DNA of 64,000 nt from Candidatus Altiarchaeota archaeon (GCA_041306075.1 JBFYKH010000008.1:11482-75481), one strand, 5' to 3'. Shown: positions 22,660 to 55,695, counted from the stretch's first letter. Made by a program: numbers and translations. The notes: generated by a model not told the origin, from the sequence alone.

Positions 22660-23229
22660 TCACTCTATGTTTATCCTCCTCTTACCATCAGCCTTCCGTT
22701 CCTTCCTCCGGAATTTGACCTCGAGTATCCCGTTCTTGTAGGAGGCTTTGATGGTGTCGGGGTCGACTTCGGCCGGCATCCGTAGCTCCTTGTGGTATTT
22801 CCGGGCCTTGTTGTCGACGTGTATCTGCAGGCTCCTCTCGTCGGCCTTCAGGTCTATGTCCTGCTTCTCCACGCCAGGCAGCTCGGCGATGACTGTGATT
22901 TCGTCTTTTCCGTCTATGACGTCGACGAGCGGCTCCCGCTCCCCTGGTATCTCCTCGACGCCCGGCTTCGGAACGTTCCCGAACTCCTCCATCACCGGCC
23001 TGCCGTCCGGGCCGGTGTGCATGCTGAACCCGTAGACGTAGCTCTTGCCCGGCTCCTCGCCGAGGTGGTCGTGGCTCAGGACGTCGCGCATCATCCGGTC
23101 CATCTGCTCGCGGACCCTGCGGAATTCCTCGCCGAAGCCGCCGAAGTCGTCGCCCATGAAGTCGTCCAAGCCCTCGAAGAAACGTTTCCTGCGGTTTGGG
23201 ATGTCATCCATGAAATCACCGGTATCCAA
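22660..23229 (-). CDS. Small heat-shock protein, Hsp20/alpha-crystallin family
   Basis: ACD core DVIDGKDEITVIAELPGVEKQDIDLKADERSLQIHVD...ELRMPAEVDPDTIKASYKNGILEV. Confidence 0.85.
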   Translation of the reverse strand: MDTGDFMDDIPNRRKRFFEGLDDFMGDDFGGFGEEFRRVREQMDRMMRDVLSHDHLGEEPGKSYVYGFSMHTGPDGRPVMEEFGNVPKPGVEEIPGEREPLVDVIDGKDEITVIAELPGVEKQDIDLKADERSLQIHVDNKARKYHKELRMPAEVDPDTIKASYKNGILEVKFRRKERKADGKRRINIE

Positions 23230-23244
23230 TATCGAAGGGGTTCT

Positions 23245-23943
23245 TTATAAGCTGTGTCTCGTCAGCTCCGGAAGCCGCCCCCACGCCGCCAGGACGTCGC
23301 CTGAGACGACGACCACCCCCCGGAGCCCTGGTATGGCCTTCGCGGTCTCCAACGCAATGCCCGTGTTACCGCCGGACTTGACTGCGTTGCCGACCGCCGT
23401 GGCCGCCGCGTCGGCCAAGGCCGCCGAATCCGCTACGGCGGTGGCGGAGTCCGCGGCGCCGAGGCTGACCGACGGCCCCACGGACGCGGAGCTCGTGCAT
23501 ATCCCGCAAGGCGTGTCCTCCGGCTTCACCAGGAATGCGAGCTGGCCGGACAGGCTGGACGGCCCCGAGTATATCCCCACCGTCTTCTCCTCCTTCGCGA
23601 GCATGTATATGTCCCCCCCGTTCTCGACTATCACGTCGGCCGCCCCATCCGACGACAGCCTCCGCCCCACGAGCTCTGCGAACGCTCCAGCGACCGCGGC
23701 CATGGGGCCGACGCCGCACCTGCCCGCCGCCTCCGCCATGAGGGCCGCTATCTCCGGGGCGTCTACCGAGACCTCCACTGGCTCGTAGGATGCTTTGAAC
23801 AGGGGGTTCGAGTTTATGTACGCGATTAGGCGGTCGTATTGGGTTACGAGCTCGTCGAGCGACGACTCCTTCAGGTCGAGGTCGCAGTGTATCATGAAGT
23901 TCGTCTCGCCGTATGTCAGGGGCCAGCGCATCGGACACCTCAT
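23245..23943 (-). CDS. UPF0280-like protein (ApbE-like fold), tentative
   Basis: C-terminal pattern CTSSASVGPSVSLGAADSATAVADSAALADAAATAVGN resembles archaeal UPF0280 proteins. Called from memory of the family signature only. Confidence 0.45.
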   Translation of the reverse strand: MRCPMRWPLTYGETNFMIHCDLDLKESSLDELVTQYDRLIAYINSNPLFKASYEPVEVSVDAPEIAALMAEAAGRCGVGPMAAVAGAFAELVGRRLSSDGAADVIVENGGDIYMLAKEEKTVGIYSGPSSLSGQLAFLVKPEDTPCGICTSSASVGPSVSLGAADSATAVADSAALADAAATAVGNAVKSGGNTGIALETAKAIPGLRGVVVVSGDVLAAWGRLPELTRHSL

Positions 23944-25151
23944 GTGAGGCTGCAGGACTCCCTGAGCCGGATTAGTGCGGACACGAGCGCCGTGTTGCCG
24001 GCGGACTCGGCCCTTGAAACCACGGCCTGGAATCTCTCGCCGGAGATGGCCTGGGCCAGGGCCACGGAGGACGACGCCCCCTTCGACTGCATGCTCCTTG
24101 TGATGCCGGACAGAAGCCTTATGCCGGTGAGCATCTGGGTCTCGTCGGGCGTGTCGCAGAAGCCGATGACCGCGTTCAGTCCTTTCAGGCCGGAGTATCC
24201 GAGCACCAGGGAGACGGCGTCGTATTCCTGGTCGGTCCTCATATCCTTCGCCCGCTCAAGGAGGGGTGCGAGGCCCGCTTCCCCGAGGTTGGCGAGCGAG
24301 TTCACGGCCACGAAGTCTGTGATGCCGTCGTGCACGAGGCTGCGCGACAGGGCCGCCGCCAGGGGAGGCGCGACCTCCGGGGGCATCTTCGAGAGGACAG
24401 TGACTGCGGGCGTCGCGAGCCGGGCGTCCGGGAGGCCGTCGAGGTTTTTGGGGTTGGCGGCCTTCAGGATGCCGTCGACGACAGCGTCCGTCGCGAGCGC
24501 GGCCCATCCCCGCAGCGCCTCGCCCACGTGCGCCGAAAGCTGGCCGTGGGGATGGGTCGAGAGCAGGTTCAGGAACGCGGGGATTGATGAGGCGATGACG
24601 GATTCCGCCTCCCCGGTCTTCCCATCCAGCATGAGGTTTCTCGCGTGTATGGCGAGGTCGTCCACCCCCGCGCACTTCGAGTCCTCGTCGGGGGAGTCGA
24701 GGAGCGTTTTGGCGCGGTCTATGCCGTCGTCGAGGACGGACAGCACGGTTTCGGCGTCGCTCCTCCTGTAGGGGTGTTCGGGGTCGCTTTCCGCGGATAA
24801 GAGCATGTCTTTGAGCCATCCGGCGTCCTTCGGCCTGGCGGCTGCTGCGAGCATGAGCGCTTCGTGGGAGCGGAAGCCGAGGTCGTTGGAGACGCCCATC
24901 CAGGAAACGAGTTTTTCCGCTGCGTTTCCGCTTCCCGGGGATTTCCCGGCAAGCAGTGCCGCTATGAGCTTGACGAGTTTCCGCCGCCCGTCCTCCGGCT
25001 CCGTCTTAAGGAGCTCGGCCGCGGCTTCCGCGACGTTCAGGCCGCCACCCGCAGCTTCGACTGCCCGCCTGATCTCCTCTTCGCCCGCTTCGGCTGAGCA
25101 CGCCTGGGCCGCGGTTGCCCGGGCCCGGTCGTCCGGAGGCTGAGTTGCCAT
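23940..25151 (-). CDS. Alpha-helical (HEAT/PBS-lyase-like) repeat protein, hypothetical
   Basis: The real start is the internal Met MATQPPDD at 25151; the upstream part of the track ORF overlaps the ferredoxin gene. Ala/Leu-rich helical repeats. Confidence 0.5.
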   Translation of the reverse strand: MATQPPDDRARATAAQACSAEAGEEEIRRAVEAAGGGLNVAEAAAELLKTEPEDGRRKLVKLIAALLAGKSPGSGNAAEKLVSWMGVSNDLGFRSHEALMLAAAARPKDAGWLKDMLLSAESDPEHPYRRSDAETVLSVLDDGIDRAKTLLDSPDEDSKCAGVDDLAIHARNLMLDGKTGEAESVIASSIPAFLNLLSTHPHGQLSAHVGEALRGWAALATDAVVDGILKAANPKNLDGLPDARLATPAVTVLSKMPPEVAPPLAAALSRSLVHDGITDFVAVNSLANLGEAGLAPLLERAKDMRTDQEYDAVSLVLGYSGLKGLNAVIGFCDTPDETQMLTGIRLLSGITRSMQSKGASSSVALAQAISGERFQAVVSRAESAGNTALVSALIRLRESCSLT

Positions 25152-25183
25152 GCTTAGAGATTGGAGGGAGGGATTAAATAGAT

Positions 25184-25579
25184 TCAGGCCTTGGGGGGGC
25201 TGAGGGCGCGGGTCGGGCATGCTTCCACGCATTGGCCGCAGCGTATGCACTCGTCGTTGTCGAGGCGCATCCGCCAGTCGCGGATGGTTATCGCCTTGGT
25301 GGGGCAGACGCCGTAGCATGCGAGGCAGTCCACGCACCGTCCATCGTCCTTGAGTATGTTGCCTGACAGCTCCTCGGCCTCGACGCCGTGAAGTTCGAGG
25401 TAGTGGAGGAGCTTCCGCTCCGCCTCGGGGCCGCCGAGTACGCCTATCGCGAGCATCTCCTTCGAGTATTCAACGTCGGCGGTGAGGATGTTGACGAGTA
25501 CTCCGGTCTTCAGGACGGCTTCCGCGAGCACCGGCCTGTCTGAGGCTTCCGTGCTGTAGCGCAGGAGATAGCGTTTCAT
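25184..25579 (-). CDS. NIL-domain 4Fe-4S ferredoxin (MA1822-like partner of the COG1900 homocysteine enzyme)
   Basis: The real protein is MKRYLLRYSTEASDRPVLAEAVLKTGVLVNILTADV... (NIL domain) plus two CxxCxxCxxxCP clusters (CVDCLACYGVCP, CIRCGQCVEACP). Track ORF 25184..25915 is over-extended. Confidence 0.8.
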   Translation of the reverse strand: MKRYLLRYSTEASDRPVLAEAVLKTGVLVNILTADVEYSKEMLAIGVLGGPEAERKLLHYLELHGVEAEELSGNILKDDGRCVDCLACYGVCPTKAITIRDWRMRLDNDECIRCGQCVEACPTRALSPPKA

Positions 25580-27075
25580 CTTCTCATCCGCCCCCATGCC
25601 CGGTTTATGTCCGACGACGTTATTATGCCCACTAAGCGGTTCTCCCCGTCCACGACCGGCGTGGAGTTGAAGCCGTGCTTCTCCAGGCGCCTTCCGACCT
25701 CGTCTATGGCCTCGTTCGGCTTGGAGGTGACGACCCCACGGGACATGACGTCGCGGAGCCTCCTCTTCTTCTGGGCGACCGCCTTGGTGAAGTCGAACGA
25801 CGTGACTATCCCGACGAGCATGCCCTTCCCGTCGACTATGGGTATCTGGTCGTAGCCCTTGCCCACCATGAGCTCGGACACAGTCTCCGGTGACTCCGTG
25901 TCCCGGACGGCGCACACCTTCCGGGTCATCACGTCCTCTACGCGGGGCATCTTGGCCGTGACCTTCATCGGCTTGACGGCGCGCTCCCGGGGGAGGGGTA
26001 TTATCTCCTCCGGGAAGTAGTACCGTTTCTCGCTTATCCAGGAGGCGAGCTCGTCCATTATGTCGTAGGCGAGCTTGAAGCTGGAGAGCGGCGCGGACTT
26101 GACGGCCTTGCCGTTCACGTCCACCCGTCCCGAGAGGAGTTCGCTGTATTTTATCCTCCTGAGCTGGGGCCTGTCGAGCCTTGCGACCCCGTAGTCCACG
26201 AGATTAGTCTCGATGAGGTCGTTCGTCACCGCCGTGCTCTTCGCCAGCTCCTCGTCGAGTATCGGGACGGGTATGCCTATGCCGACGAAGAGGCTGGTGC
26301 CGTAGTGCGGTATCGTCGCGCCGCGGACGTACTTGGGGTCCATTCCCCTTAGGTCGCCCTTCACCGTGATGTTGCCGAATCCGCTCTGCGGGGAGTGCTG
26401 GGTGCCTTCGCCGACGACGACGCCTTCGGCGCCGCACAGGAATATCCTCGTCCCGAAGCCGATGGTCCGGTAGCCGGGGTCGTTGTTGAGCGGGCTTATC
26501 TCGCCGCACCCCGCGAAGTTGACGTTCCCGCCCCTAGGGAGTAGCGTGCCCATGTACGTGTGGAGCTTCCGCTCCGAGAGGTTGACGGCGGCCGTGTAGC
26601 GCTGGTAGGCGTTCCTCGGGTTGAACATGTACGCCTGGTTCAGGTCGTCCAGGGTTATCGTCGTCTCGAGCTTCTTCGTCGGGTAGCAGTCGGTCCCGTA
26701 GGATGACGCCCTCACGTTTATCTCCCTGCCGGCCACCAGGTCCTCTATGACGTGGCCGCCGCCGTATTCCATGCCGCGGTCGAGGCTGAGTTCAGTCGCG
26801 CCGACGTAGGCGTCGACGGCGGCTAATCCGCCGTATGCTTCCACCTCGTTCAGCCATACCTTCTGCATCTTTATGGGCGGGTTCGAGTGGCCGAAGTTTA
26901 TGAACGCCCCCGAGCTGCACATGGCGCCGAATGTCCCGGTCGTCACGACGTCGACTTCGCGCGCCGCCTTTTCCAGACCTTTTTTGGCCACAATTTCCGG
27001 CATCTCGTCGGCCCTGACGACTACGGCTTCCCCTTTCCGTATCTTCTCGTTTATTTCAGCGAGGGTTTTGGCCAT
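25576..27075 (-). CDS. L-aspartate semialdehyde sulfurtransferase (COG1900/DUF39 domain) with C-terminal tandem CBS domains; archaeal homocysteine biosynthesis
   Basis: The N-terminal ~380 aa match the COG1900 pattern (GTFGAMCSSGAFINFGHSNPPIKMQKVWLNEVEAYGG...). C-terminal VMTRKVCAV...IPIVDGKGMLVGIVTSFD and VMSRGVVT...TPVVDGENRLVGIITSSD are two CBS domains. Confidence 0.8.
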   Translation of the reverse strand: MAKTLAEINEKIRKGEAVVVRADEMPEIVAKKGLEKAAREVDVVTTGTFGAMCSSGAFINFGHSNPPIKMQKVWLNEVEAYGGLAAVDAYVGATELSLDRGMEYGGGHVIEDLVAGREINVRASSYGTDCYPTKKLETTITLDDLNQAYMFNPRNAYQRYTAAVNLSERKLHTYMGTLLPRGGNVNFAGCGEISPLNNDPGYRTIGFGTRIFLCGAEGVVVGEGTQHSPQSGFGNITVKGDLRGMDPKYVRGATIPHYGTSLFVGIGIPVPILDEELAKSTAVTNDLIETNLVDYGVARLDRPQLRRIKYSELLSGRVDVNGKAVKSAPLSSFKLAYDIMDELASWISEKRYYFPEEIIPLPRERAVKPMKVTAKMPRVEDVMTRKVCAVRDTESPETVSELMVGKGYDQIPIVDGKGMLVGIVTSFDFTKAVAQKKRRLRDVMSRGVVTSKPNEAIDEVGRRLEKHGFNSTPVVDGENRLVGIITSSDINRAWGRMRR

Positions 27076-27095
27076 TCCTAGAGAGAATCGTTATG

Positions 27096-27124
27096 CGTAT
27101 TTAAATACGTAATGCAATTGCATA
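27096..27124. promoter_or_regulatory. Perfect palindromes cgtatttaaatacg (27096-27109) and atgcaattgcat (27112-27123) in the divergent promoter region between the COG1900 operon and the HTH-CBS regulator gene
   Basis: Read directly from the sequence. tatttaaata also serves as a TATA-like box about 25 nt upstream of the minus-strand start at 27075. Confidence 0.5.
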
Positions 27125-27168
27125 TTCGTTTAAGCATATTTATGCATTTGAGCATCGAAAAAGAGAAA

Positions 27169-27729
27169 ATGCAGCTCCCCCCAACCACCGACATAGAACG
27201 CCTGCGCAGGAAGATGGGGCTCACACAGACTGAGCTCGCAGCGAAGGCAGGGGTGAGCCAGAGCCTCGTCGCCAGGATGGAGGCCGGGACCGTGGACCCG
27301 AGGTACAGCAAGGTCGCGAAACTGTTCCAGGCGCTCGACGAACTGAAGGGCGGTGAAGTCACCGCAAGGGAGATAATGTCCAGTGACGTCGTGGGCATAC
27401 AGCACACCGCCTCCATAGAATACGCTGCCGGCAAACTGAAGAAGCACAACGTGTCCCAGCTGCCCGTCTACGACGGAGACAGGACGCTCGGCTCGTTCTC
27501 GGAGCGCGACATACTGGGGCTCCTCGCGAACGGCGTCGACGCAAAGGCATTCTCGAGCGAGGAGGTGGGCGAGCACATGGGCGGGGCCTTCCCGACCGTG
27601 AAACCAGAAACCCCCCTCACCGTGCTGTCAACGCTACTTGAGCACAACACAGGAGTCCTCGTGCAGGAGCAGGGAAGGACCATCGGCATAGTGACCAAGG
27701 CGGACCTCCTGAAGGTAGTCCACAAGTGA
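27169..27729 (+). CDS. Transcriptional regulator, XRE-type HTH + tandem CBS domains
   Basis: HTH LRRKMGLTQTELAAKAGVSQSLVARMEAG, then CBS domains (IMSSDVVGIQ...LPVYDGDRTLGSFSERDIL; TVKPETPL...VLVQEQGRTIGIVTKADL). Start set at MQLPPTT (27169) using the TATA-like atatttat at 27135-27142. Confidence 0.7.
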   Translation: MQLPPTTDIERLRRKMGLTQTELAAKAGVSQSLVARMEAGTVDPRYSKVAKLFQALDELKGGEVTAREIMSSDVVGIQHTASIEYAAGKLKKHNVSQLPVYDGDRTLGSFSERDILGLLANGVDAKAFSSEEVGEHMGGAFPTVKPETPLTVLSTLLEHNTGVLVQEQGRTIGIVTKADLLKVVHK

Positions 27730-28518
27730 CTAGCTGTTCGTCGAAGAGTTAAGATGGTCCAGCTCCCGGGCAATCTGCCTGAGCTCGCCGGTCACATCGG
27801 CTGGCAGGTCGTGCATTATGAGGTTCCCTATCCTTCCCCGAATGGAACTGAATAGAGCCCTGTTGGCCGGCTGGGCGAGCGCCGCCCTCACCGCCCTCAC
27901 GTCTATGAGCGGCTCCTGGTGGGCCGCATGGGCCGGCTCTGCGGATATTATGCCGGGTATCTGAGCCCCGAGCGGCTGAAGCGGTTCCGCCGCCGCGGGC
28001 TCTTGGGACGGGACCGACTGGACGGTCTGCACCTCGCTCTGGAGGGGCGTCATCCCGGACTGCTTGCTCGCAAGCTCCATCTGGGCGACCCGCTTAAGCT
28101 GCCTCTCGAGCGCGTCCCGCTTGTCCGAGGATAATGACGCGCTGTTGGACATCCCCCTGACCCAGGACGACGAGCCCGCCTTCTGCCTGTTGGCGGACGG
28201 GTCCCCCCCGCTCTGGGCGTCCTTCAGCATCCTGTCGAAGAAGCTTGAGTACGACTTCCCCCCGGACCGGCCGCCGGAGGATGACGAACTGAATATGCCC
28301 ATTGTGCTCTGCGCGGGCCTCCTTGCAGAGGGCTGGGGGGCGTTTGGCTGGGCTTCGACGTTGCGGTTGCGCACGACCATAGTATCAGACTGGAAGCGGG
28401 TTCCGCGGGTCTCGTTGTACAGCCGCCTCGACTTTATGGCGTCCTGTATGTGCTGCGGCTCCCGCTTCTCCAGGGAGGCGTATTTCGACCGGATGCTGCT
28501 TAGCCCGTTTTCCTTCAT
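27730..28518 (-). CDS. Hypothetical low-complexity (Ser/Gly/Gln/Ala-rich) protein
   Basis: ORF only; compositionally biased. Uncertain. Confidence 0.3.
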   Translation of the reverse strand: MKENGLSSIRSKYASLEKREPQHIQDAIKSRRLYNETRGTRFQSDTMVVRNRNVEAQPNAPQPSARRPAQSTMGIFSSSSSGGRSGGKSYSSFFDRMLKDAQSGGDPSANRQKAGSSSWVRGMSNSASLSSDKRDALERQLKRVAQMELASKQSGMTPLQSEVQTVQSVPSQEPAAAEPLQPLGAQIPGIISAEPAHAAHQEPLIDVRAVRAALAQPANRALFSSIRGRIGNLIMHDLPADVTGELRQIARELDHLNSSTNS

Positions 28519-28607
28519 CTGGCTTGACCTCAGCCCAATAAGCCGCCCACCCGGATGGATTAATTATGCCGTTCTGCATTTAAAAGACAAAGACAAAATA
28601 ACAGTTT

Positions 28608-28760
28608 ATGGGCGACATGGACGGCGAAGTTTACAACGCCATAAGGGAGATACAGAACGAGGTGTACTACATCCACGAGATTCTGAAGGACATTAACAAG
28701 ACCAACAAGTCCCTCTTGGACGAGATAAAGGGCCTCAGGAACGAGCTGAAGACCAGGTGA
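28608..28760 (+). CDS. Small (50 aa) coiled-coil protein MGDMDGEVYNAIREIQNEVYYIHEILKDINKTNKSLLDEIKGLRNELKTR, not in ORF track
   Basis: The TATA-like tttaaaag at 28579-28586 lies ~22 nt upstream of the ATG. Clean heptad-like composition. Confidence 0.3.
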   Translation: MGDMDGEVYNAIREIQNEVYYIHEILKDINKTNKSLLDEIKGLRNELKTR

Positions 28761-45176: not shown

Positions 45177-48100
45177 TCACTCGCCCTTGTTCAGGGCTTG
45201 GAAGTACGCCACCCTGATTTTCGCGCCTATCTCGCTGATTTCCACTGCAAGCTTCCTGTATTCGCGCTGGTTCAGGGAGGCCGTCAGCCTGCTTGCCCCG
45301 GCTTCGAGGCCGCCGGTGTCGCCGCCCCGCCGTTGTATCTCCGTTATCATCGCCTGATGCCGGGCGACGACCGCTTCGAGCCGCGTGTACATGGACGAGT
45401 CCTGCTCCTCCGTCCGGCGCTCGCTCTCCACTGCCTTCTTGAGGGCGTCCTCCTCCCGCTGCATCTCCTCCGCTTTCTTCCTCGCGGCCTCCTGCCGCTC
45501 CATAGCCGTAAGGAGCCTCCAGGCTGCCAAGTCCGCAGTGAGTTTGTCCATGGCCTTTTGCCTGAGTTTGTCCAGGTTGTCTTTCCGCTTTTGCGCCTCC
45601 TTTATCTCTTCAGGCGTCGGCTCCGGGGTTTCCGGTGCGCGCTCCCGCTGCTTCGGCTCCTGGGTTTCGGAGGTTCGCTCAGGCGGCTTCGGCTCCCAAT
45701 TCGTCTGCGTCTTGGGCAGGGGGCCGCCGGACGTCGAGTCGGCGGTGGTCGCCGTCGACTTTGGGGGGGATAGGTCTATCCCGAGGAGGGTGGTCTTCGT
45801 CTCCAGGTCGTTGACGCTCCTGGCCCCTAGCTTGTCCAGAAGCTCCTGGGCGCCCTCCTTGTCTCCTCCCTTGAGCCTGGCCTTCACCTCCCTCAATGTC
45901 GAGCGCTTAAGCTCCGCGGCCACTCCCTCGGGCGTAGCCTCGACCGTGGACCCTTTCTTGGCGTATTTCTGGAGCCTTCCGGCCGCATCCTCGGCCCTGC
46001 CGTTCTTCAGGAGTTCGATTGCATCGTCCCTGGTCTGCGCGCGGCCGACGTATTCGTCCACCATCCGGGCGTCCATCTTGGCGAGGCTGGACAGCCCTTC
46101 TATAGTGTAGGAGGTCTTCAGTATGTTGCTCATCGTCTCGTTGTCCACCTTCCCGCGTATCTTCTCAAGGCCGTCGATTGCGTTGTATATGCTGTCCTTC
46201 AGCCGCCTTTTCTCCTCGACCGTGAGGTCTTTGCCGTACGCTTCGATGTAGGTGTCCCGCAGATGCCGCCTGACCTCTTCCGAGCCCCTGAAGCCTCCCT
46301 CGACCGAAGCCTCCGCCGGGAAGTACGAGTTCATCTCGTTTATCATCCTGAACTCGACCTCCCTGCGCTTCAGTATGTGTTTCCTAAGCCGCTCTATCTC
46401 CTTCTCGTCCGTTATGCCGGCCGCCTTCACCCGCTCGTCAAGCTCCTTCCGGGTCGCCGCCTCCAGCGCCTCCTTCCGGAGCGTGCTCATCGTGGCGTCA
46501 ACCCTGAACTTCTCGTGCGCGGCCTCGTGGACGACCGTCCTTTCCGTGTCGCTCCCTATGCTGGCCTGGCTGCCCTTCTCCAGGATTTCTCCGGAGATTA
46601 TGTTCAGGCCGACCACTTCGCCCTTCTTCGGCGGAGAGTTGAAGCCCCCCCAGTTGCCCTTGCTCTCCATGAACTTGTCGACGAGGCCGGGGGAGTCTCC
46701 CTTGCCCTTCCAGTCAGCCTTGTCAACCACTATCGCGTAGGGGGATATGTCGCCTATGCCGCTCGCCCTCATCCGCTCCATGTAAGCCTCGTTCGTGCTC
46801 AAATCGATGAAACTAGCGGACTTCAGGTCTTCGGCGGTGACGTCCTTGCCCCGCCGTTTAGTCGACTCGATTAGGTAGTTTACCGCCGCCTCCCTCTCCT
46901 TGGAGCCTTCGGCGGCGTTGAGCCCGGACAGTATCGCCTTGTGCTCTTCCTCGGCCCGGTCGTGCCGTATCTGCCTGACATGCCTTAGGATTCCCTCGAC
47001 CTGCTGGCCTGAAGCGCCTTCGGACCGCATCTTGTCGGTGATGATTCTGTCGGACATGTTGTATAGCGTCTCGTTCGTGGCGATGCCAGTGTCCCTGTTC
47101 CTGCGCATCTTGTCGAGGGCGGTTTTGACCGACGCGTCCGTCATAACCTGGTCGGGACTCATGCCGGTCATCCTGCCGACCATCTCAAGCTCGGCCGCGG
47201 CCTCGTTGTTGTCGTAGAGGCTCACGCCGTTGCGTTTCAGCGATTCGGCGTACGCCGTCTGCTCAGGCGTCAACGGCACATCGGCTGCATAAGCTCCCGG
47301 CATCGGGGTCGAGACGCCCAGGGATGCCCTGTCTCTCCTGCCGGAACGGGCGCCGCCAGCATCGGCCACCTGGCCCCCGAGCGGCCCGGAGCTGCCAGTC
47401 GGCTCCTGCATCATCTGGCTTGCCGGCACGTCCGGCGTGATGCCGCTCTTCTGCCAGAATTCTCCGGGTTGTATTTGCTTTGAGAGCTCCGGGTTCGAAG
47501 AGTATATGGAGGCGAGGTTCCGGGCCTTGACTTCGCCTGAGTCGAGCCTCTTCACGTAGTCCTGCACGGTGCTGGACTTGTATATGTCCGGCATGTTCCG
47601 CTCGAAGAGCTGCCTCTGCCCGCTCTCCTGGCTGAGGAGGAACCTCCAGTTCGGGTTGTTGTGGTCGAGGAAGTCGGCCTCTGTCTTGTAGGGGCCCGTA
47701 CCCCAGTTAGCCCTCGTGAACGACGTGTTCAGCACGTCGAAGTGGCTTTGCATCCGCTCCGTCCCCGAGCCGTCCTCCTTCCAGCGGAACCATCCGTTCG
47801 GGTTCCTGAACCCGAGTTCGGAATGCGTCCTGAGGTTCTCTATGTCCCGGTCGGCAAACGACGGGAACATCCCCTTGAGTTCGGCGGACGAGTAGCGTTC
47901 GGTGTTGCCGTGCCCGCTAACCCACCCCTTGAGGGAGAGCTCCATGCCCGTGAACCTGTTCCTCTGCAGGTCGTCGCTGAGGCTCTGCGCCTGCACCTGG
48001 ACGGCCTTCATCTCTTCGTCCGCTATCTGGCCTGCGAGGCCGCCTACGTAGCCGAGGCCGCCGGCGACGGTGCCGAGGCCGGGAAGCACTACCGTGCCTT

Positions 48101-51100
48101 TGGCGAGGGCTTCGGCGAGGCCTACAGCCCCGTCCGAGTATGACCCTGTCGCTTGAGCGCCCTCCTGGTAGCCGGCGTACGTCGCGAAGCCGGCGCCGAG
48201 CGCCCTGCCCGCCAGCGGGCCGGCCTTTGCCGAGAACTTGGGCGCTATCTTGGCTACCCCCGCCTCCACACCTTTTTGCGCAAGGCCTAAGCCGGCCATC
48301 TGGGCCGTGCTCACCCCTAGGTTGGCGGCGACCTGGCCTGCTTCGACCGGTTTGCCGCGCAGGACGTCTCCGGCCAGGTCTATGGCCTCGAACTGGGCTG
48401 CACCCTTCACGGACGACGTCAGGTGCGTGCCGACGCTGCGGAACACTCCATGCTTGGGGGCCTGACCCCCATCAGGCTGGGCTGCCGGAGAGACCATATG
48501 CCTTGGCATCGCCGGCGCCTCCACGAGTTGACCATCCATGTAGATGCTTGTCAAGCGGACCCCGGGCGGAATCTTCTCCAGGGTGAGGGCGTCGGTTAGT
48601 CCTCCGCTGACATGCTTTACCTTGAAGTCGAGTGCGCCCTGCGGGTTCTCGGTTACTGTGAGTTTAGCCACGGGCGTTGGAGCGCTCGGGCCATGGAGTT
48701 CGCCGCCGGAGAGGGTCGATATTTTCTGGCCTATTGAGCCTTTTTTTCGCTCAAGGATTTGGCTTGGGTAATAGGGTTTAACTACCGTCCCTGAGGGTAC
48801 CGGTCCGGTACCCTCCATCCTCACCTTTGTCTGGAGGCCGATGTCGGACTGTCTGAACGCGCCCGTGCTGCATGAGTCCAGGACGGTCACGACCCGCCCG
48901 GTCTCAGGCACGGTCCCCCGTATTATCTCAAGTGCCCTTTCGTTCGGTATCTCCTCGGTCTTTATCCCTGAGAAGAGTCCGAATTTAGTCTTTTTACTGT
49001 AGAGGTCTGAGGTCTTGAGGTAGGCCGGAGAGTTGTGGAGGTCTCCCTGGAATCGCGGGTCCTGCTGGTACGCGTAGGGGTCGCCGAGCTGTATAGAGTC
49101 TGGCGTCCCGTGCCCGCCCAGTATCCTGTATTGTGGGGCGCCGACCATCCGGGTGTGGCGTAGCATGGCCCTGGCCAGTTCCGGCGTGTTGCCGGCCTCG
49201 TAGAACATAAAGCCGTGGTCTTGGGCGAGTTTTATGTTGTCGGCCTGGTTGTAGAGCGCCCCGTTCCAGTCGGCCTTTGCGTTGACTATGATTCCGGAGT
49301 GTTTCGGTTTATACTGGCCGGATTCTATGAGCCGGTGCTGGTTGTACTGGTTGAGTAGGGCGTCGACGCCGTATCTGCCGAAGACCGTAATGCCGTATCT
49401 TTCATTCAGCAGTTTGGCTGCGCCAGGCTGCCTTTGCTCCAGGTCGTTGAGGACGCCTATGTTTGAGCCAAGGTGGTAGGGATTGTTCGCCCACCATGTG
49501 ACTGCCGTCCTCCCAGGGTTCAGCCCGGTTTTTGCAATAACTTCTTGCGCTACGAAGACGCTGGCAAATTTTTCGGACGGGCTTCCCATCTTGGAGGAAT
49601 GCGGCGGGGGGAGCTTTAACTTGCCGTCAGGAGACGGCAGGGGCTCGCCTCTCATCGCCGCTGCCAGATTGCTAGTCAGCGCAGCCCGGTTGATTGTGTC
49701 GCCGCCGGCCATGACATCCCTCATCAGCGCCGTAGCCCCCTTGCCGAATTCAGGGTCGTTTGCCGCCAGCTCGATGAGGTACCTCATCTTCATAGTTTCC
49801 GAGGGCAGGGGCGGAAGGGTTGTGGCGCCCACCCGGAGGGGCTTGATTTCCTGGGCGAAGTGGTTCAGTAGTTCGCCCTGGTTCTGCTTCAGGAACTCCT
49901 TTGCCCCCTGGTTGCCGTTCTGGATTTGGGTGTTGAGTTCATGAAGGGTGTTGTTGGCGGCTGCCTTGTCGCTCAGGCTGTCGAGGATGGCCTTGCGGTC
50001 CGCCTCAGCCGACGGCCCCGTGCCTGCCGCCGAAGCCCATATGCTCGAAGGGAACGGGGTTGTTTTTGGCGGCGTCCCGGCTACGGGTGTGGCCGCCGCC
50101 CCCAGCTTTACCGCCGGCATCATGGTTTTGTCGGCGATGTATTCTTCCGACGTCTGGCCTGTGACGGCCGGCGCTATCTCGGCGCGCTCCAGGATGCTTG
50201 CGGGGTCGCGCTGGAACAGCCGGTTGACGCCGCCTGCGGAGTCCGCCATCCCGAGCACCTGCCGTCTCACGTTGTCCGGGTCCCTAACCGCCCCGGTGTG
50301 GGCCATCTGCGACAGCTTGGATTCGAACCTCCTCGCCTCCTCGGCCGTGGCTCCGAGCCTCTCGTCCTCCTTGGGCGTGGCCAGTAGGCTGTTGTATGCC
50401 TGCATCTTCGCCTCCTCCTGCCGGTTCTCCGCTTCAATCCGCTCCGCGTATCTCTTGGCCTTCAGCTCGTCCTCGCTGACCGGCTGCCGGTCGGCTCCGG
50501 GGGGATTGGGTGCCGTCCCTTGTGGGGCCGGGGCTCTGGCCGTAGGCTCCCCGCCCGAGGGCACCGGCGCGCCGACCTTGGGCATCGGAGCGGCCGGAGG
50601 CTTCATGGGGCCTTGTGTCTGGATTTTGACGCCTGAGCCGTGCGCCGGCCCCGGCGATTCGGCCTGCCCCGGCGTCTGGGCTTCTGTTGTCGCGTTGACG
50701 GACGGGGGGATTTGCCGTCCGAGGCTGCCAGACTGCGCTCCGTCCTCCCTCATCACGGAGACGCCGCCGCCCGATGTGCCGGACGACGTCGACGAGACGA
50801 CGGTTGCGGGAGACTGCGATTCCTCGCTCATTGATGGCGACTCCTCTGCTGGCGCGCGCCTTGACGGCGGCCGTGGCTGTTGCGGCTGCCCCATGGAAGG
50901 AGGCCTCGCGGCTGAAGCCCGGGTTGCGCGGCGCGCAGCCGATTGCCCGCCGCCCGTCAACACCGCCGCCTGGGAGGATGACGAGGGAGCGTCCGGCGAG
51001 GACGGTGGGGATGGGGCTGAGGCCGCCCGCTGCAGCGTCGTCCCCGCTCCTGCCGCCCCGGCTCCGGCGATTACCGGGGCCGTGGACGCGTTGATTGGCA

Positions 51101-52412
51101 TGCCTGCGGGCGCCGTGGAGCCGCTTGCCCCATGCGCGCCCGAGGCGCCTGAGGAGGACATGGACCTTGGGCCGACACGCCCGCCCGAGAAAGGGGACCT
51201 TCCGCCCATAAACGGCCCGCCAGGCTCGCCGAGCCTGTCCATAGGCGAGTCCGGGACCTGCCCCTGCGCGCTTGGGCCGCCGCCCACGTGGTCGCCCACC
51301 AGGCGGCCGATTGTGAACAGCTGGGCGGACGTCGTGACCGCGGTCGCCACGCTGCCTGAGCGCATCCAGGTACCGAGGAACCTCGTCATCTGGGTCACAG
51401 GCCTCACACCCGACACAGTTACGAGGGCGCCTATCCACCCCATCATCTGCATGCCAACCATGGGGGCGAGGAGGACTCCGAGGTAGGCGGCTAGCATGAG
51501 TATGAAGTCAAGGAGCGTCGGGGCGTACGCGGTGTTCGCGAGCATGAGGCCGACGCACAGGAACAGCGTCTGGAGTATCTGGACCATGAAGATGAGTATC
51601 GTGAACTTCCAGAGCCTGGTTCCGATGCCCCGCATTGAGAAGAGCGGGTTCGGTATGTCCGTGAAGAACATGAAGAGGATGAGCGGGAATATGCACGCCA
51701 TCACGTAGACGAGGAAGTACCGGTAGGCGGCAAGCGGCGCCGCAATAGCCGTGACTATGAGGAAGAACAGCATGGTGCAGCAGTATTTCGCTTCGGTGAA
51801 CGTGAAGACCACGGTCGACACCGTGGTGACCGAGGACCGGGACAGCGCCGTCTGTATGAGGGTGTCGCATATCTCCCGGACTATGTCCAGCATGAACTGG
51901 AATATCGCCGGCGAGAGCGAGACCAGGACCATGCCGACGAACACTCGGACGAACATGTCCTTCGCGTTCACCCTCCCCTGCGGGGAGCCGGACATGAATA
52001 TCAGGTAAATACCTATCATGATTATGGCGAGGGCGTAGAAGAGCTGCAGCATCTCCATTATCCTGACGTTGACCGCCCGGATGCCCTGGTCCTCCGGCAT
52101 GCTGAACTCGACCTGGCCGCCGTCTATCAGGTGTATCACGTATGCCTCGCAGTCGCCGCTCGGCGCAAAGACGCACGGGTTGATTTGCGTGAACACCCAG
52201 ATGGGCGTGAGCGTCACCTCCAGTATGGTTTCCGAGACCAGTTCGACGAACGCCTTGGCCGCCTCGAAGACCATGAGGACCCACAGGTTGGCGCCCCAGA
52301 TCTGCGCGATAACGGGGGTTGCTATGAGGAGGAGGACGGCGAAGGCTATCGCTAGCCTGCGTGCGACGACTTTTCGGCCTTTCGGCTCCCCGTCTTGAGA
52401 ATCTGCCATCAA
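45177..52412 (-). CDS. Giant (2411 aa) polytopic membrane protein: signal peptide + ~6-TM module, Pro/Ser/Gly/Ala-rich linker, ~1600-aa hydrophilic region with caspase/CHAT-like His...Cys motifs, HExxH motif and C-terminal coiled coil
   Basis: Single uninterrupted ORF. The N-terminal TM module is homologous to that of the upstream 52409..55585 gene (FYALAIIMIGIYLIFMSGSPQGRVNAKDMFVRVFVGMVLVSLSPAIFQFMLDIV vs LYALLIILTGIYYVWASISPNIRAMVKTQLTYLIVGMIACGLSLQIFDILLEL). 4-nt start/stop overlap (ATGA) with the upstream gene. Confidence 0.8.
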   Translation of the reverse strand: MMADSQDGEPKGRKVVARRLAIAFAVLLLIATPVIAQIWGANLWVLMVFEAAKAFVELVSETILEVTLTPIWVFTQINPCVFAPSGDCEAYVIHLIDGGQVEFSMPEDQGIRAVNVRIMEMLQLFYALAIIMIGIYLIFMSGSPQGRVNAKDMFVRVFVGMVLVSLSPAIFQFMLDIVREICDTLIQTALSRSSVTTVSTVVFTFTEAKYCCTMLFFLIVTAIAAPLAAYRYFLVYVMACIFPLILFMFFTDIPNPLFSMRGIGTRLWKFTILIFMVQILQTLFLCVGLMLANTAYAPTLLDFILMLAAYLGVLLAPMVGMQMMGWIGALVTVSGVRPVTQMTRFLGTWMRSGSVATAVTTSAQLFTIGRLVGDHVGGGPSAQGQVPDSPMDRLGEPGGPFMGGRSPFSGGRVGPRSMSSSGASGAHGASGSTAPAGMPINASTAPVIAGAGAAGAGTTLQRAASAPSPPSSPDAPSSSSQAAVLTGGGQSAARRATRASAARPPSMGQPQQPRPPSRRAPAEESPSMSEESQSPATVVSSTSSGTSGGGVSVMREDGAQSGSLGRQIPPSVNATTEAQTPGQAESPGPAHGSGVKIQTQGPMKPPAAPMPKVGAPVPSGGEPTARAPAPQGTAPNPPGADRQPVSEDELKAKRYAERIEAENRQEEAKMQAYNSLLATPKEDERLGATAEEARRFESKLSQMAHTGAVRDPDNVRRQVLGMADSAGGVNRLFQRDPASILERAEIAPAVTGQTSEEYIADKTMMPAVKLGAAATPVAGTPPKTTPFPSSIWASAAGTGPSAEADRKAILDSLSDKAAANNTLHELNTQIQNGNQGAKEFLKQNQGELLNHFAQEIKPLRVGATTLPPLPSETMKMRYLIELAANDPEFGKGATALMRDVMAGGDTINRAALTSNLAAAMRGEPLPSPDGKLKLPPPHSSKMGSPSEKFASVFVAQEVIAKTGLNPGRTAVTWWANNPYHLGSNIGVLNDLEQRQPGAAKLLNERYGITVFGRYGVDALLNQYNQHRLIESGQYKPKHSGIIVNAKADWNGALYNQADNIKLAQDHGFMFYEAGNTPELARAMLRHTRMVGAPQYRILGGHGTPDSIQLGDPYAYQQDPRFQGDLHNSPAYLKTSDLYSKKTKFGLFSGIKTEEIPNERALEIIRGTVPETGRVVTVLDSCSTGAFRQSDIGLQTKVRMEGTGPVPSGTVVKPYYPSQILERKKGSIGQKISTLSGGELHGPSAPTPVAKLTVTENPQGALDFKVKHVSGGLTDALTLEKIPPGVRLTSIYMDGQLVEAPAMPRHMVSPAAQPDGGQAPKHGVFRSVGTHLTSSVKGAAQFEAIDLAGDVLRGKPVEAGQVAANLGVSTAQMAGLGLAQKGVEAGVAKIAPKFSAKAGPLAGRALGAGFATYAGYQEGAQATGSYSDGAVGLAEALAKGTVVLPGLGTVAGGLGYVGGLAGQIADEEMKAVQVQAQSLSDDLQRNRFTGMELSLKGWVSGHGNTERYSSAELKGMFPSFADRDIENLRTHSELGFRNPNGWFRWKEDGSGTERMQSHFDVLNTSFTRANWGTGPYKTEADFLDHNNPNWRFLLSQESGQRQLFERNMPDIYKSSTVQDYVKRLDSGEVKARNLASIYSSNPELSKQIQPGEFWQKSGITPDVPASQMMQEPTGSSGPLGGQVADAGGARSGRRDRASLGVSTPMPGAYAADVPLTPEQTAYAESLKRNGVSLYDNNEAAAELEMVGRMTGMSPDQVMTDASVKTALDKMRRNRDTGIATNETLYNMSDRIITDKMRSEGASGQQVEGILRHVRQIRHDRAEEEHKAILSGLNAAEGSKEREAAVNYLIESTKRRGKDVTAEDLKSASFIDLSTNEAYMERMRASGIGDISPYAIVVDKADWKGKGDSPGLVDKFMESKGNWGGFNSPPKKGEVVGLNIISGEILEKGSQASIGSDTERTVVHEAAHEKFRVDATMSTLRKEALEAATRKELDERVKAAGITDEKEIERLRKHILKRREVEFRMINEMNSYFPAEASVEGGFRGSEEVRRHLRDTYIEAYGKDLTVEEKRRLKDSIYNAIDGLEKIRGKVDNETMSNILKTSYTIEGLSSLAKMDARMVDEYVGRAQTRDDAIELLKNGRAEDAAGRLQKYAKKGSTVEATPEGVAAELKRSTLREVKARLKGGDKEGAQELLDKLGARSVNDLETKTTLLGIDLSPPKSTATTADSTSGGPLPKTQTNWEPKPPERTSETQEPKQRERAPETPEPTPEEIKEAQKRKDNLDKLRQKAMDKLTADLAAWRLLTAMERQEAARKKAEEMQREEDALKKAVESERRTEEQDSSMYTRLEAVVARHQAMITEIQRRGGDTGGLEAGASRLTASLNQREYRKLAVEISEIGAKIRVAYFQALNKGE

Positions 52413-55400: not shown

Positions 55401-55585
55401 ACTATGACCTTCCCGGACTGGTCCTTGGCGTTATCGGTGTCCTTCGAACTCCTCTTGTCCATATCCTCCCCGGTGAGGGGATTCTCGTTGCCCTGGGCCT
55501 GGACGGAGAGGGCGTACTGTGACAACAGGAGGCAGGACGCGACATAGACGAGTAAAACGCGTTTTATTATCTCACCCTTCGCCAT
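52409..55585 (-). CDS. Large (~1058 aa) polytopic membrane protein, paralogous N-terminal module to the 2411-aa protein, helical C-terminal region with one extra TM pair
   Basis: Signal peptide MAKGEIIKRVLLVYVASCLLLSQYALSVQAQG. Start set at 55585 because the TATA-like cttaaatata overlaps the first ATG at 55609. Six TMs, then a Gly/Ala/Pro linker and an Ala/Lys/Glu-rich helical domain. Confidence 0.8.
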   Translation of the reverse strand: MAKGEIIKRVLLVYVASCLLLSQYALSVQAQGNENPLTGEDMDKRSSKDTDNAKDQSGKVIVAKGGDTMLHSLSGIKTYRGMFMGLLYGKRSKFLGVVPVQIRDLDSRHPVIREFLAPTIFNLLIPLYALLIILTGIYYVWASISPNIRAMVKTQLTYLIVGMIACGLSLQIFDILLELNNFLLDEILSVQFAGNRIVPTNWDPITGFLKTGLPGVAVGGSIIALILVATGGVGVALIWPIVLMLVAAIILPYIILAIRFDVVLVFGGIFPFTVFCMSFDYLRGMGNKLMKLTLTWIFLPIPMAIFMVLSQAFLDTASSLGMALTSAMAALVAFAMIGFSPMMIASMTGIAGAAFIYAGQTMGNPRLVFIGSMIQGQGAAAITSAAMHAERLSSRTQASEASAAGYNIPSRGDGPLGAGAAQPPPPYSEGARKASAEHLAASGSKPTYAQSGLGDGVRETGAAGGGVFDKGISLQERRNRLLFGDPVEAGTPPEYMSSQQYYGMRYAQSSGLGKVGWQAAGLAANAKFLLPPAGYFLRGMLRGSIADYPIGKSLANVSWKMTGRWEKDPATGKTMFNHGWLSVKGISGDLANTAADMYKGYKPGEGTPPAVKAAILGSKLGFPIALLMLPMAPVVGLGIMATAAVAMGTGTRMFKRMGERVAGDGEAHNNIRAKAQERKPIQEKLMEAEAKNGGQMSKDQVRASLTDRELKSFGYKEDDPSTRAGAVDRAYGFYQRAAAVTEDKAWGGTPQWRQAQLGYDGKGGANDKLAKAEALDANRNAVLLDRQDVWEATPENMRKRMGWKKDYEGAQDAKSRSRVEQAMNKAYGRYAGVSQSQAVQTTITDVGLMGLYTTSPQDLSLDGVSKARDELSDAAEGRQKSESRAQAAFESKDLNSPGWKALPQAEAAAIMGKTWTGLSAAEQKLFGHDVAEWERTSGAAAANLRSARDRRDSAYSDVGDGEAVAWQVYSGLGQNEREQYLNAAKDALSGGAVKSRMSSQNVRYHAAYLAYSDAAKKNWAGVTNQGEYLARANNDVNRAQRYALIESLAKQKPGRGGG

Positions 55586-55695
55586 GCCATTTAGGATTTG
55601 GTGTTGCATATATTTAAGGGGTATTTGGACGGGTTCGCGGCCTTTTTTTAACGTTTTATTGGCGCTCGGGTAATGTAGTTCAAGGTAGCGTCAAA

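Follow-up and report, generated by a model that had tools for sequence, protein, structure and literature searches.

The homocysteine locus and its divergent regulator gene

The 64,000-nucleotide (nt) stretch of DNA from a Candidatus Altiarchaeota archaeon considered here (GCA_041306075.1 JBFYKH010000008.1:11482-75481; the whole stretch is referred to below as the window) carries a locus for homocysteine synthesis, together with a divergently oriented gene for a small protein that joins a helix-turn-helix (HTH) domain to a pair of CBS domains. The listing of open reading frames (ORFs), with Pfam and NCBIfam searches, bore out the gene set described in an earlier note on this DNA, namely a COG1900-CBS gene, a NIL-ferredoxin gene and a divergent HTH-CBS gene; moreover, the domains, the cysteines and an MJ0100-like CBS pair agree with its view that the enzyme pair is the known system leading from aspartate semialdehyde to homocysteine. 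The principal features are as follows.

27169-27729, + strand: regulator gene, XRE-type HTH_3 domain and CBS pair, 186 aa
27076-27168: intergenic region shared by the regulator and enzyme genes, 93 bp
25576-27075, - strand: COG1900a/DUF39 catalytic subunit with C-terminal CBS pair (MA1821/MJ0100 type) of L-ASST (L-aspartate semialdehyde sulfurtransferase), 499 aa
25184-25579, - strand: NIL-domain 2x[4Fe-4S] ferredoxin, MA1822-type subunit of L-ASST, 131 aa (PF09383 NIL and Fer4 families)
23245-23943, - strand: probable COG2122/UPF0280 gene (MA1715-type, ApbE-like), 232 aa, last conserved gene of the operon

The enzyme genes are identifiable as those of the known L-ASST, which makes homocysteine from aspartate semialdehyde and sulfide. 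Residues 17-352 of the catalytic subunit match positions 1-347 of the 349 in the Pfam HcyBio model (PF01837; E 2e-139); the DUF39 domain lacks an inserted ferredoxin and is followed by two C-terminal CBS domains (Pfam), for which the top match in the PDB is the CBS pair of MJ0100 (E 3e-22). Cys53 (GAMCSSG) and Cys130 (GTDCYP) are the putative counterparts, matched by position only, of Cys54 and Cys131 in MA1821. The NCBIfam model for methanogenesis marker 16 reaches 171 bits against a cut-off of 364 bits, and the MMP16/COG1900d paralogues have no CBS pair, whereas the window protein has one; an exact-sequence lookup of the latter returned no record. The ferredoxin, whose gene starts 4 nt inside the end of the catalytic gene, has eight cysteines in two CxxCxxCxxxC motifs. 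L-ASST is MA1821-MA1822 in Methanosarcina acetivorans, with MA1715/COG2122 as a sulfur-trafficking partner (PMC12068725), and homocysteine synthesis in Desulfovibrio needs DUF39, NIL/ferredoxin and COG2122, all three (PMC5764234). As with MA1821/MA1822 and MJ0100/MJ0099, the window combines a DUF39 protein bearing a CBS pair with an adjoining NIL 2x[4Fe-4S] ferredoxin, and a probable COG2122 gene belongs to the gene string. It departs from the characterized systems in its host, which looks to be of Altiarchaeota type rather than a methanogen or sulfate reducer, and in having all three genes in one string, an extra unannotated gene inserted between them, and a dedicated divergent regulator; we found no report in the literature of such a regulator for the characterized L-ASST systems. 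The occurrence of the L-ASST pathway in Altiarchaeota would be a modest extension of its known range.

The regulator protein

A longer ORF for the regulator (205 aa, starting at 27112) was set aside, because most homologues are ~186 aa long and align from residue 1; the start was therefore placed at 27169, which gives the intergenic region its 93 bp. The HTH domain scores 45.4 bits against PF01381 (cut-off 23 bits; residues 28-76 of the longer ORF), and the CBS domains score 75 bits against PF00571 in two stretches. An AlphaFold2 model (pLDDT 85) has helices at 8-59, and Foldseek aligns it with CBS pairs at root-mean-square deviations of 2.1-2.7 Å; among these many pairs is the regulatory domain of human cystathionine beta-synthase bound to S-adenosylmethionine (SAM), on which the CBS pair of the model superposes at 2.4 Å. 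Searches of the PDB by sequence and by fold returned isolated CBS pairs or HTH domains and no full-length homologue, and NCBIfam holds no specific model for the protein.

The family comprises 609 clusters (50% identity) at E <= 1e-30, nearly all of them of 175-200 aa, for which the source annotations go no further than 'CBS domain-containing protein' or 'predicted transcriptional regulator'; the top homologues are labelled Candidatus Altiarchaeota or Altiarchaeales. Across the family alignment, the recognition helix (SQS..A..E) is invariant, as are Gly173 and Asp179 of the motif GIVTKAD in the second CBS domain (CBS2), with Thr176 nearly so. A metagenome scan with the regulator alone produced one close relative (locus L081, 94% identical), the remaining matches being at the level of domains. 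Bins labelled 'uncultured Methanosarcinales' (L054, L057, L059 and L067) place the regulator beside a bacterial-type MetK, and their regulators are closest to proteins of Woesearchaeota and Nanoarchaeota; they are maybe mis-binned. A protein search started from a 'Methanosarcinales' bin found only proteins from Woesearchaeota/Nanoarchaeota-type metagenome-assembled genomes (MAGs), and none from a cultured or characterized organism.

A 14-bp inverted repeat accompanies the regulator gene

A scan of GTDB (one genome per species) with the family alignment located at least 556 loci with relatives of the regulator, the best-scoring 80 of which were analysed. These 80 are phylogenetically clumped, with many from Bathyarchaeota, so the counts of loci given below are not counts of independent events; the window excepted, all loci compared come from MAGs or metagenome contigs. 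ORF starts in them were called by a simple longest-ORF rule, and distances to target start codons are therefore approximate.

The regulator genes share a putative operator, a 14-bp inverted repeat AT[T/G]C-N6-G[A/C]AT. Within 200 bp upstream of the regulator, AT[GT]C-N6-G[AC]AT occurs at 78 sites in 69 of the 80 loci, and the spacing is sharply defined: the corresponding counts are two for N3, one for N4, four for N5 and one each for N7, N8 and N9. The intergenic regions of the Altiarchaeota share ATGCA-N4-TGCAT, and within ~330 kb of Altiarchaeota loci its 12 zero-mismatch copies all fall in regulator/HcyBio promoters or at one further conserved intergenic site. Outside the Altiarchaeota, the shared sequence is ATTC-N6-GAAT, typically tATTCCAAAAAGAATa; of the 113 perfect copies of this form in the 1.26 Mb searched, 63 are concentrated in the 1.3% that immediately precedes the regulator. 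ATGCA-N4-TGCAT had been our first definition of the operator, and it was dropped for AT[T/G]C-N6-G[A/C]AT in view of the ATTC...GAAT form, with its identical spacing, and of hybrid sites (ATGC...GAAT or ATTC...GCAT) in L002, L003 and L010. The window has three operators.

27124-27137: O1, ATTC-gtttaa-GCAT, canonical; separated by 15 nt from the L-ASST TATA box and by 31 nt from the regulator ATG
27142-27155: O2, ATGC-atttga-GCAT, between the regulator TATA box and start codon
28566-28579: O3, ATGC-cgttct-GCAT, abutting the TATA-like TTTAAAAG (28579-28586)

In L081, O2 has two changes in its spacer and keeps both half-sites (ATGCAGTTAAGCAT), and O3-type sites of the form 'ttaattATGC-N6-GCATt(t)aaaa' are found in L081, L107, L108 and L109, their flanks and spacers having diverged; the footprint of O2 and O3 is thus one of conserved half-sites within variable surroundings. 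Perfect copies of ATGC-N6-GCAT number four in the 64-kb window against 0.71 expected, a count reached by no shuffle, and all four lie within 4.5 kb of the locus. Two copies are in coding sequence, at 24121-24134 in the gene inserted into the operon and at 25219-25232 in the 3' end of the NIL-ferredoxin gene; they have no AT-rich flanks and may be due to chance.

The half-site ATGC occurs only with regulators that have an arginine in the recognition helix (SQSLxAR), although the correlation is incomplete. A simple specificity swap, pairing Arg36 with ATGC and Lys36 with ATTC, holds in the Altiarchaeota and in L046 and L047, and fails in Jordarchaeia, where L068 and L080 have an arginine at alignment position 36 together with ATTC-like direct repeats; because of this mismatch and the hybrid sites, the covariation of residue 36 with the half-site is only partial.

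The two perfect palindromes of the shared promoter

The 93-bp divergent promoter and the two perfect palindromes that the earlier note reported in it are present exactly.

27096-27109: palindrome 1, CGTATTTAAATACG, exact; includes TATTTAAATA (27098-27107), the leaderless L-ASST gene's symmetric TATA box
27112-27123: palindrome 2, ATGCAATTGCAT, exact; operator-like half-sites at N4 spacing

In a reading that follows the note, these palindromes would be the operators; the SAM-bound regulator, sitting on the TATA boxes, would then repress both of the divergent promoters. Their joint occurrence is indeed improbable, in that 3000 dinucleotide-preserving shuffles of the 93 bp yielded a 14-mer palindrome accompanied by another of 12 bp or more with a frequency of 0.0003; any palindrome of at least 12 bp appears with a frequency of 0.056 and, because the window has 27 perfect ones of this size, a single palindrome is unremarkable. 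Palindrome 1 contains the - strand TATA-like sequence TTTAAATA, the first base of which (27105) is 30 nt from the ATG at 27075; here the note was correct in reporting an overlap with a TATA-like box. Palindrome 2 lies beside a TATA box without overlapping it. In every related L-ASST promoter, the sequence aligned with palindrome 1 is the TATAAATA box, where the relatives read cATATAAATAc; the palindrome's outer base pair is lost in the 94%-identical L081 (...ATACA), and elsewhere among the relatives the palindromy is absent. On this alignment, palindrome 1 is the symmetric TATA box of the L-ASST gene and not an operator.

Palindrome 2 has the operator-like half-sites ATGC/GCAT and a position, within the 15-nt spacer (27109-27123) between the L-ASST TATA box and O1, that is that of the transcription factor B recognition element (BRE) of the L-ASST promoter. 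It is kept in L081, a relative too close for this to carry weight, and L107 has a similar sequence, ATGCATATGCAT; however, the 15-nt spacer of the relatives is not palindromic, and an N4 spacing was seen once upstream of the 80 regulators as against 78 times for N6. Palindrome 2 could be an accessory or degenerate site, a reading that nothing requires. Taken together, repression of both promoters through the two palindromes seems unlikely to us.

An Rfam search of 22-30 kb found no riboswitch or other RNA family, and an RNA-based SAM sensor at the locus was rejected on this result. A scan for sigma-70 promoters and intrinsic terminators is uninformative for an archaeon; the TATA boxes and transcript starts given here are predictions from the sequence.

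Conservation of the regulator's neighbourhood

Five close relatives of the regulator were compared (P0004, P0010, P0012, P0016 and P0019; 69-75% identity), and all five have a divergent HcyBio-NIL-ferredoxin-COG2122 operon; tblastn over the 80 loci revealed the same arrangement, with or without COG2122, in most other Altiarchaeota loci and in ~10 from Bathyarchaeota. The divergent pairing of HTH-CBS and COG1900 genes is therefore a conserved one. Nor are the remaining orthologues, in the main, scattered among unrelated genes, a pattern that would have told against the note's reading; the non-COG1900 neighbours are mostly MetY/MetX/MetW, MetK or an archaeal SAM synthetase, as would suit a regulator of the methionine/SAM pathway. 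ORFs within 4 kb of the regulator were clustered and the clusters identified with Pfam and NCBIfam, giving the following classes.

L-ASST operon: 18 of 80 loci (Altiarchaeota and Bathyarchaeota)
MetY/X/W: 21 of 80 loci
Bacterial-type MetK: 13 of 80 loci
Archaeal-type SAM synthetase: 7 of 80 loci
None of these: 21 of 80 loci

MetY is an O-acetylhomoserine sulfhydrylase (TIGR01326, 645 bits), followed by MetX (NF001209, 515 bits) and MetW (PF07021); the SAM synthetases are either of the bacterial type (PF00438/PF02772/PF02773) or of the archaeal type (PF01941). These immediate neighbours are mostly divergent from the regulator. With a methionine/SAM class represented in 59 of the 80 loci, the regulator thus follows several non-homologous enzymes of one pathway, that from homocysteine to SAM. 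It does so over a wide range of archaea, including Altiarchaeota, Bathyarchaeota, Micrarchaeota, Woesearchaeota, Aenigmatarchaeota, Iainarchaeum and Thermoplasmatales, among others.

Another association is seen in Altiarchaeota: an aconitate hydratase gene (NF005558, 944 bits) with an isocitrate-dehydrogenase-like gene either comes after the regulator (L001-L008; L011) or stands behind an O3-type site (L107, 11317-11330; L109, 5292-5305). This gene pair is absent from the window.

Operator copies at separate target genes

Where target genes are not adjacent to the regulator, they have operators of their own. This applies to MetY at 76, 70 and 77 nt from the called start (L021, L040 and L065, respectively) and to MetK at 77 and 80 nt (L052 and L059); ThrC-like genes have one at 56 and 57 nt (L060 and L074), and further copies are found at CysK in L060 and at a ThiF/MoeB-like gene in L074. 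In L010, from Altiarchaeota, regulator and operon are arranged tail-to-tail; two perfect sites lie 52 and 120 nt upstream of the HcyBio gene, and the hybrid site of this locus (ATGC...GAAT) is upstream of the regulator. In independent copies with an asymmetric spacer (CAAAAA), the orientation relative to the target gene is constant.

These copies bear on the possibility that the operator serves autoregulation alone, the methionine/SAM neighbours being controlled by other means and their adjacency being a matter of genome organization. At most loci there is a single site, which overlaps the regulator's TATA box and lies ~16 nt beyond that of the neighbour, and the MetY promoters of Bathyarchaeota hold a different conserved palindrome that possibly belongs to another factor. 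Set against this are the independent copies at separated MetY and MetK genes (70-80 nt) and at HcyBio (52 and 120 nt), with their conserved orientation, a TATA-to-operator spacing of ~15 nt that is constant over non-homologous targets and phyla, and the link to one pathway in 59 of 80 loci. We therefore hold pure autoregulation to be improbable, and prefer the reading in which the operator also serves the pathway genes.

The palindrome in question, ATAACGnCGTTAT, is found in Bathyarchaeota (L012, L025, L029, L035-L037, L039, L041, L042, L045, L048, L062, L071, L072 and L079), where it has the ATTC-N6-GAAT operator on one side and the MetY start on the other; it shares sequence with the probable TATA box of MetY, and another factor may bind there. 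Seventeen Bathyarchaeota loci also have a small HTH_3 protein (~117 aa, with a cysteine-containing C-terminus; cluster c4) beside the regulator or between it and MetY (e.g. L029, 11473-11826 on the - strand; L040; L065); it has no NCBIfam match and could be a second regulator there. In Micrarchaeota, operators precede the zinc-ribbon ThrC-like, CysK and ThiF/MoeB-like genes of L060 (5108-8450) and L074 (1399-3050 and 7728-9055), and these genes might form a route of the thiocarboxylate type to homocysteine or cysteine, likewise governed by the regulator.

Promoter geometry and a model for regulation

A position profile compiled from 69 aligned regulator-proximal sites has two AT-rich blocks. 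The first, TTTATATA, at -24 to -17 relative to the operator start, corresponds to the TATA box of the neighbouring gene, ~16 nt away; the second, at +14 to +17, continues the right half-site (GAATATAA) and corresponds to the regulator's own TATA box. The operator ends 30-32 nt before the regulator start codon in 33 of the 69 loci, which points to mRNAs that are leaderless or nearly so. The ~15-nt spacing between TATA box and operator is maintained across non-homologous target genes and phyla. In the window, O1 fits this family geometry on both sides, and the element assigned to the regulator is as follows.

27136-27143, + strand: predicted regulator TATA-like box ATATTTAT, overlapping O1 and O2 by 2 nt each; its centre is ~29 nt before the ATG at 27169

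Occlusion of the TATA box or BRE is the usual mode of repression in archaea; sites upstream of the BRE are more typical of activators. Dyads of 14 bp are typical binding sites of dimeric HTH proteins of the XRE type, and we infer that the regulator, presumably as a dimer, binds the 14-bp inverted repeat. The regulator's own TATA box, and no other, is flanked and overlapped by O1 and O2, whose occupancy would block access of TBP and TFB to it; this position lends good support to repression of the regulator by itself. The centre of O1 is ~28 nt upstream of that of the L-ASST TATA box, near -55 and upstream of the BRE; from here the regulator would modulate the L-ASST operon, most naturally through activation by recruitment of TBP/TFB, with repression as another possibility. 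Sites at the promoters of MetY, MetK and SAM synthetase would share this activator-like placement, and O3 would overlap the promoter in the next intergenic region. We favour a dual role, in which the regulator would repress itself and activate the pathway genes, the sign of its effect on the latter being about equally likely to fall either way. The CBS pair would sense an adenosyl metabolite, most likely SAM, such that the end product tunes transcription of the pathway and, as has been thought, also acts through the CBS pair of the enzyme itself.

Overall, we conclude with reasonable confidence that the HTH-CBS protein and the 14-bp operator form a regulatory system with a role in the methionine/SAM pathway. 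Several observations weigh against this. No perfect-core site was found upstream of the regulator in 11 of the 80 loci, and 21 have no recognizable methionine/SAM gene within 4 kb; of these 21, two end at a contig edge, two are from Micrarchaeota with ThrC-like, CysK and ThiF/MoeB-like genes nearby, and two are from Altiarchaeota with aconitase and isocitrate dehydrogenase. The neighbours of O3, a 50-aa ORF and a hypothetical gene, have no link to methionine, and in L107 and L109 the site precedes the aconitase/isocitrate dehydrogenase pair. The CBS pair of the regulator is as similar to AMP/ADP/ATP-binding pairs, such as those of AcuB and MJ1225, as to others, and is only 22-34% identical to that of the enzyme, so it is no recent copy of the latter. 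Finally, the assignment of the regulator to its DNA site rests on co-occurrence, and the promoter elements and transcription starts have been read from sequence only. This last circumstance leaves room for an unlinked factor that binds the motif, the HTH-CBS protein being merely co-regulated with the methionine/SAM genes. The motif, however, goes with the regulator gene in 69 of the 80 loci, whichever neighbour is present, its ATGC half-sites are confined to regulators of the SQSLxAR type (albeit with the incomplete correlation described above), and its dyad suits a dimeric XRE-type protein; an unlinked factor is accordingly very unlikely.

The ligand of the CBS pair

The sequence G-h-h-S/T-x-x-D, here GIVTKAD, is the ribose-binding motif of CBS domains, and its canonical form in CBS2 makes an adenosyl ligand likely. 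The regulator's equal similarity to AMP/ADP/ATP-binding pairs means that SAM is not separated by sequence or fold from other ligands of this kind. It would be conceivable that the operator is bound as described, and that the CBS pair responds to energy charge (AMP/ADP/ATP) or to another nucleotide, thereby coupling the ATP-costly synthesis of SAM and methionine to the energy state of the cell, much as CcpN does for gluconeogenesis in Bacillus. AcuB, MJ1225 and DarB are among the nearest matches in structure or sequence, SAM synthetase consumes ATP, and in relatives O3 adjoins aconitase/isocitrate dehydrogenase. The neighbours of the regulator are, on the other hand, specifically genes for homocysteine and SAM synthesis, in four non-homologous versions. 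Moreover, Woesearchaeota, Micrarchaeota and Aenigmatarchaeota are generally regarded as genome-reduced, and bins of all three retain the regulator beside SAM synthetase. SAM-binding CBS pairs also exist: a title cited in PMC12068725 has the MJ0100 pair binding SAM and methylthioadenosine, and the same paper cites SAM binding by the human CBS regulatory pair. We therefore regard an energy-sensing regulator as doubtful, if worth keeping in mind; from the pathway context, including that in the small-genome lineages, the ligand is probably SAM or a close derivative.

Relation to known regulators

Control of methionine and SAM synthesis in bacteria is exerted by MetJ, MetR, SahR and SAM riboswitches. 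MetJ, SahR and the riboswitches impose end-product feedback on genes for homocysteine, methionine and SAM, including that for SAM synthetase, and use a short operator, the same logic as is proposed here; their folds (ribbon-helix-helix, ArsR and RNA, respectively) are unrelated to that of the regulator, which differs from them in having a CBS pair as the sensor and archaeal TATA/BRE elements as the promoter context. CcpN of Bacillus subtilis is likewise a small factor, the N-terminal domain of which binds DNA and the C-terminal CBS pair of which is a sensor for an adenosyl or nucleotide ligand; it differs in being bacterial, in the family of its HTH and in its targets, gluconeogenic genes that respond through it to adenine nucleotides. 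CcpN and the window regulator are not linked by any NCBIfam or Pfam model. The XRE/Cro-C1 repressors (PF01381) share the DNA-binding family of the regulator, with a short dyad consistent with a dimer; in the regulator, the HTH is fused to a metabolite-sensing CBS pair and acts at archaeal promoters.

To our knowledge, no archaeal transcriptional regulator of methionine/SAM synthesis has been described. A search of full-text literature, the coverage of which excludes most subscription journals, found neither an HTH-CBS regulator of methionine or SAM nor any transcriptional regulator of their synthesis in archaea. The closest archaeal case that we found is HhpR of Pyrococcus yayanosii, a pressure-responsive activator with a site upstream of the TATA box; it is a CBS-only protein of four CBS domains without an HTH, in contrast to the HTH and CBS pair of the window regulator, and combinations of HTH and CBS are mentioned for Thermococcales without characterization (PMC11705074). 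Discussion of control in the DUF39 pathway has been limited to allostery of the enzyme, with action of SAM through CBS and of methionine through NIL as a hypothesis (PMC12068725). The enzyme genes being already known, the new part would be the regulator family and its operator, and the HTH-CBS protein probably fills the gap left by the lack of an archaeal regulator for methionine/SAM supply.

A broader generalization is tempting, though we hold it only tentatively and would not yet count on it: the family, with the HTH-CBS protein as its first member, may constitute a pan-archaeal master regulator for the supply of sulfur amino acids and SAM that senses SAM, occupies one operator between divergent TATA boxes as a directional switch, represses itself and activates whichever route to homocysteine and SAM a lineage employs. 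The lineages concerned would be Altiarchaeota, Bathyarchaeota, several DPANN, Thermoplasmatales and the Asgard Jordarchaeia, and the routes L-ASST, MetY/X/W, possibly the ThrC-like/ThiF-like genes, bacterial MetK and archaeal SAM synthetase. Were this true, one metabolite would act on the pathway at two levels, by way of unrelated CBS pairs, that of the enzyme and that of the regulator. The locus and its relatives supply a testable set, consisting of a protein family (~600 clusters at 50% identity), a precise operator set in a fixed promoter geometry, and a predicted effector. Confirmation would provide an annotation rule for archaeal MAG genes listed as 'CBS domain-containing protein' or 'predicted transcriptional regulator', a motif with which to predict methionine/SAM regulons and possibly to recognize overlooked homocysteine-synthesis genes, and a natural case of a single operator at two divergent archaeal promoters with outcomes that are probably opposite.

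Other features of the locus

Two genes are candidate targets of O3.

28608-28760, + strand: 50-aa ORF, candidate leaderless O3 target; ATG 28 nt past O3
27730-28518, - strand: conserved hypothetical gene, 262 aa, candidate O3 target; tail-to-tail with the regulator

The 50-aa ORF is 52% identical to a 50-aa gene of L109, and genes of the same size were called in L108, L109 and the P0019 contig. The 262-aa gene has homologues at the same position in L107, L108 and L109, and no family match in Pfam or NCBIfam.

Within the enzyme operon, a further gene and a putative promoter lie between the ferredoxin and COG2122 genes.

23940-25151, - strand: inserted gene ('HEAT-like'), 403 aa, no family match
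25173-25180, - strand: TATA-like box TATTTAAT, 29 nt ahead of the inserted gene's ATG and just past the ferredoxin stop codon

The earlier note had suggested that both downstream genes may be part of the operon. This is supported for the UPF0280 gene, which comes after the NIL-ferredoxin gene in ~16 loci from two phyla (Altiarchaeota and Bathyarchaeota), and not for the 'HEAT-like' gene: the 403-aa product has no match in Pfam or NCBIfam and none by tblastn in loci L001-L080, and, because the relatives have no gene (L107-L109) or one or two unannotated genes (contigs P0012 and P0019) at its position, it is, by comparison of these loci, a variable, lineage-specific insertion rather than a conserved member of the operon. 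The distance from TATTTAAT to the ATG agrees with those at the other promoters of the locus (30 and 29 nt), and this box may be an internal leaderless promoter brought by the insertion, one that would drive COG2122 too. The COG2122 gene starts 4 nt inside the end of the inserted gene; it matches the NCBIfam models PRK04334.1-3, which we take to be UPF0280/COG2122, with a best E of 5e-69 and 232 bits, under the curated cut-off of 271 bits, and Pfam ApbE with E 0.008, and homologues in related loci carry PF27030.

Directly downstream of COG2122 and on the same strand is an Hsp20 gene (22660-23229, - strand), and the P0012 contig likewise has an Hsp20 gene close to the operon. A tblastn search of the window detected no MetY, MetX, MetK, MAT, MetE, MtrH, aconitase or isocitrate dehydrogenase. 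Further away are two giant ORFs on the - strand, at 45177-52412 (2411 aa) and 52409-55609 (1066 aa); the latter is 38% identical to a 1446-aa gene that directly follows COG2122 in L107, and synteny on either side of the operon has therefore undergone rearrangement in the genome of the window.

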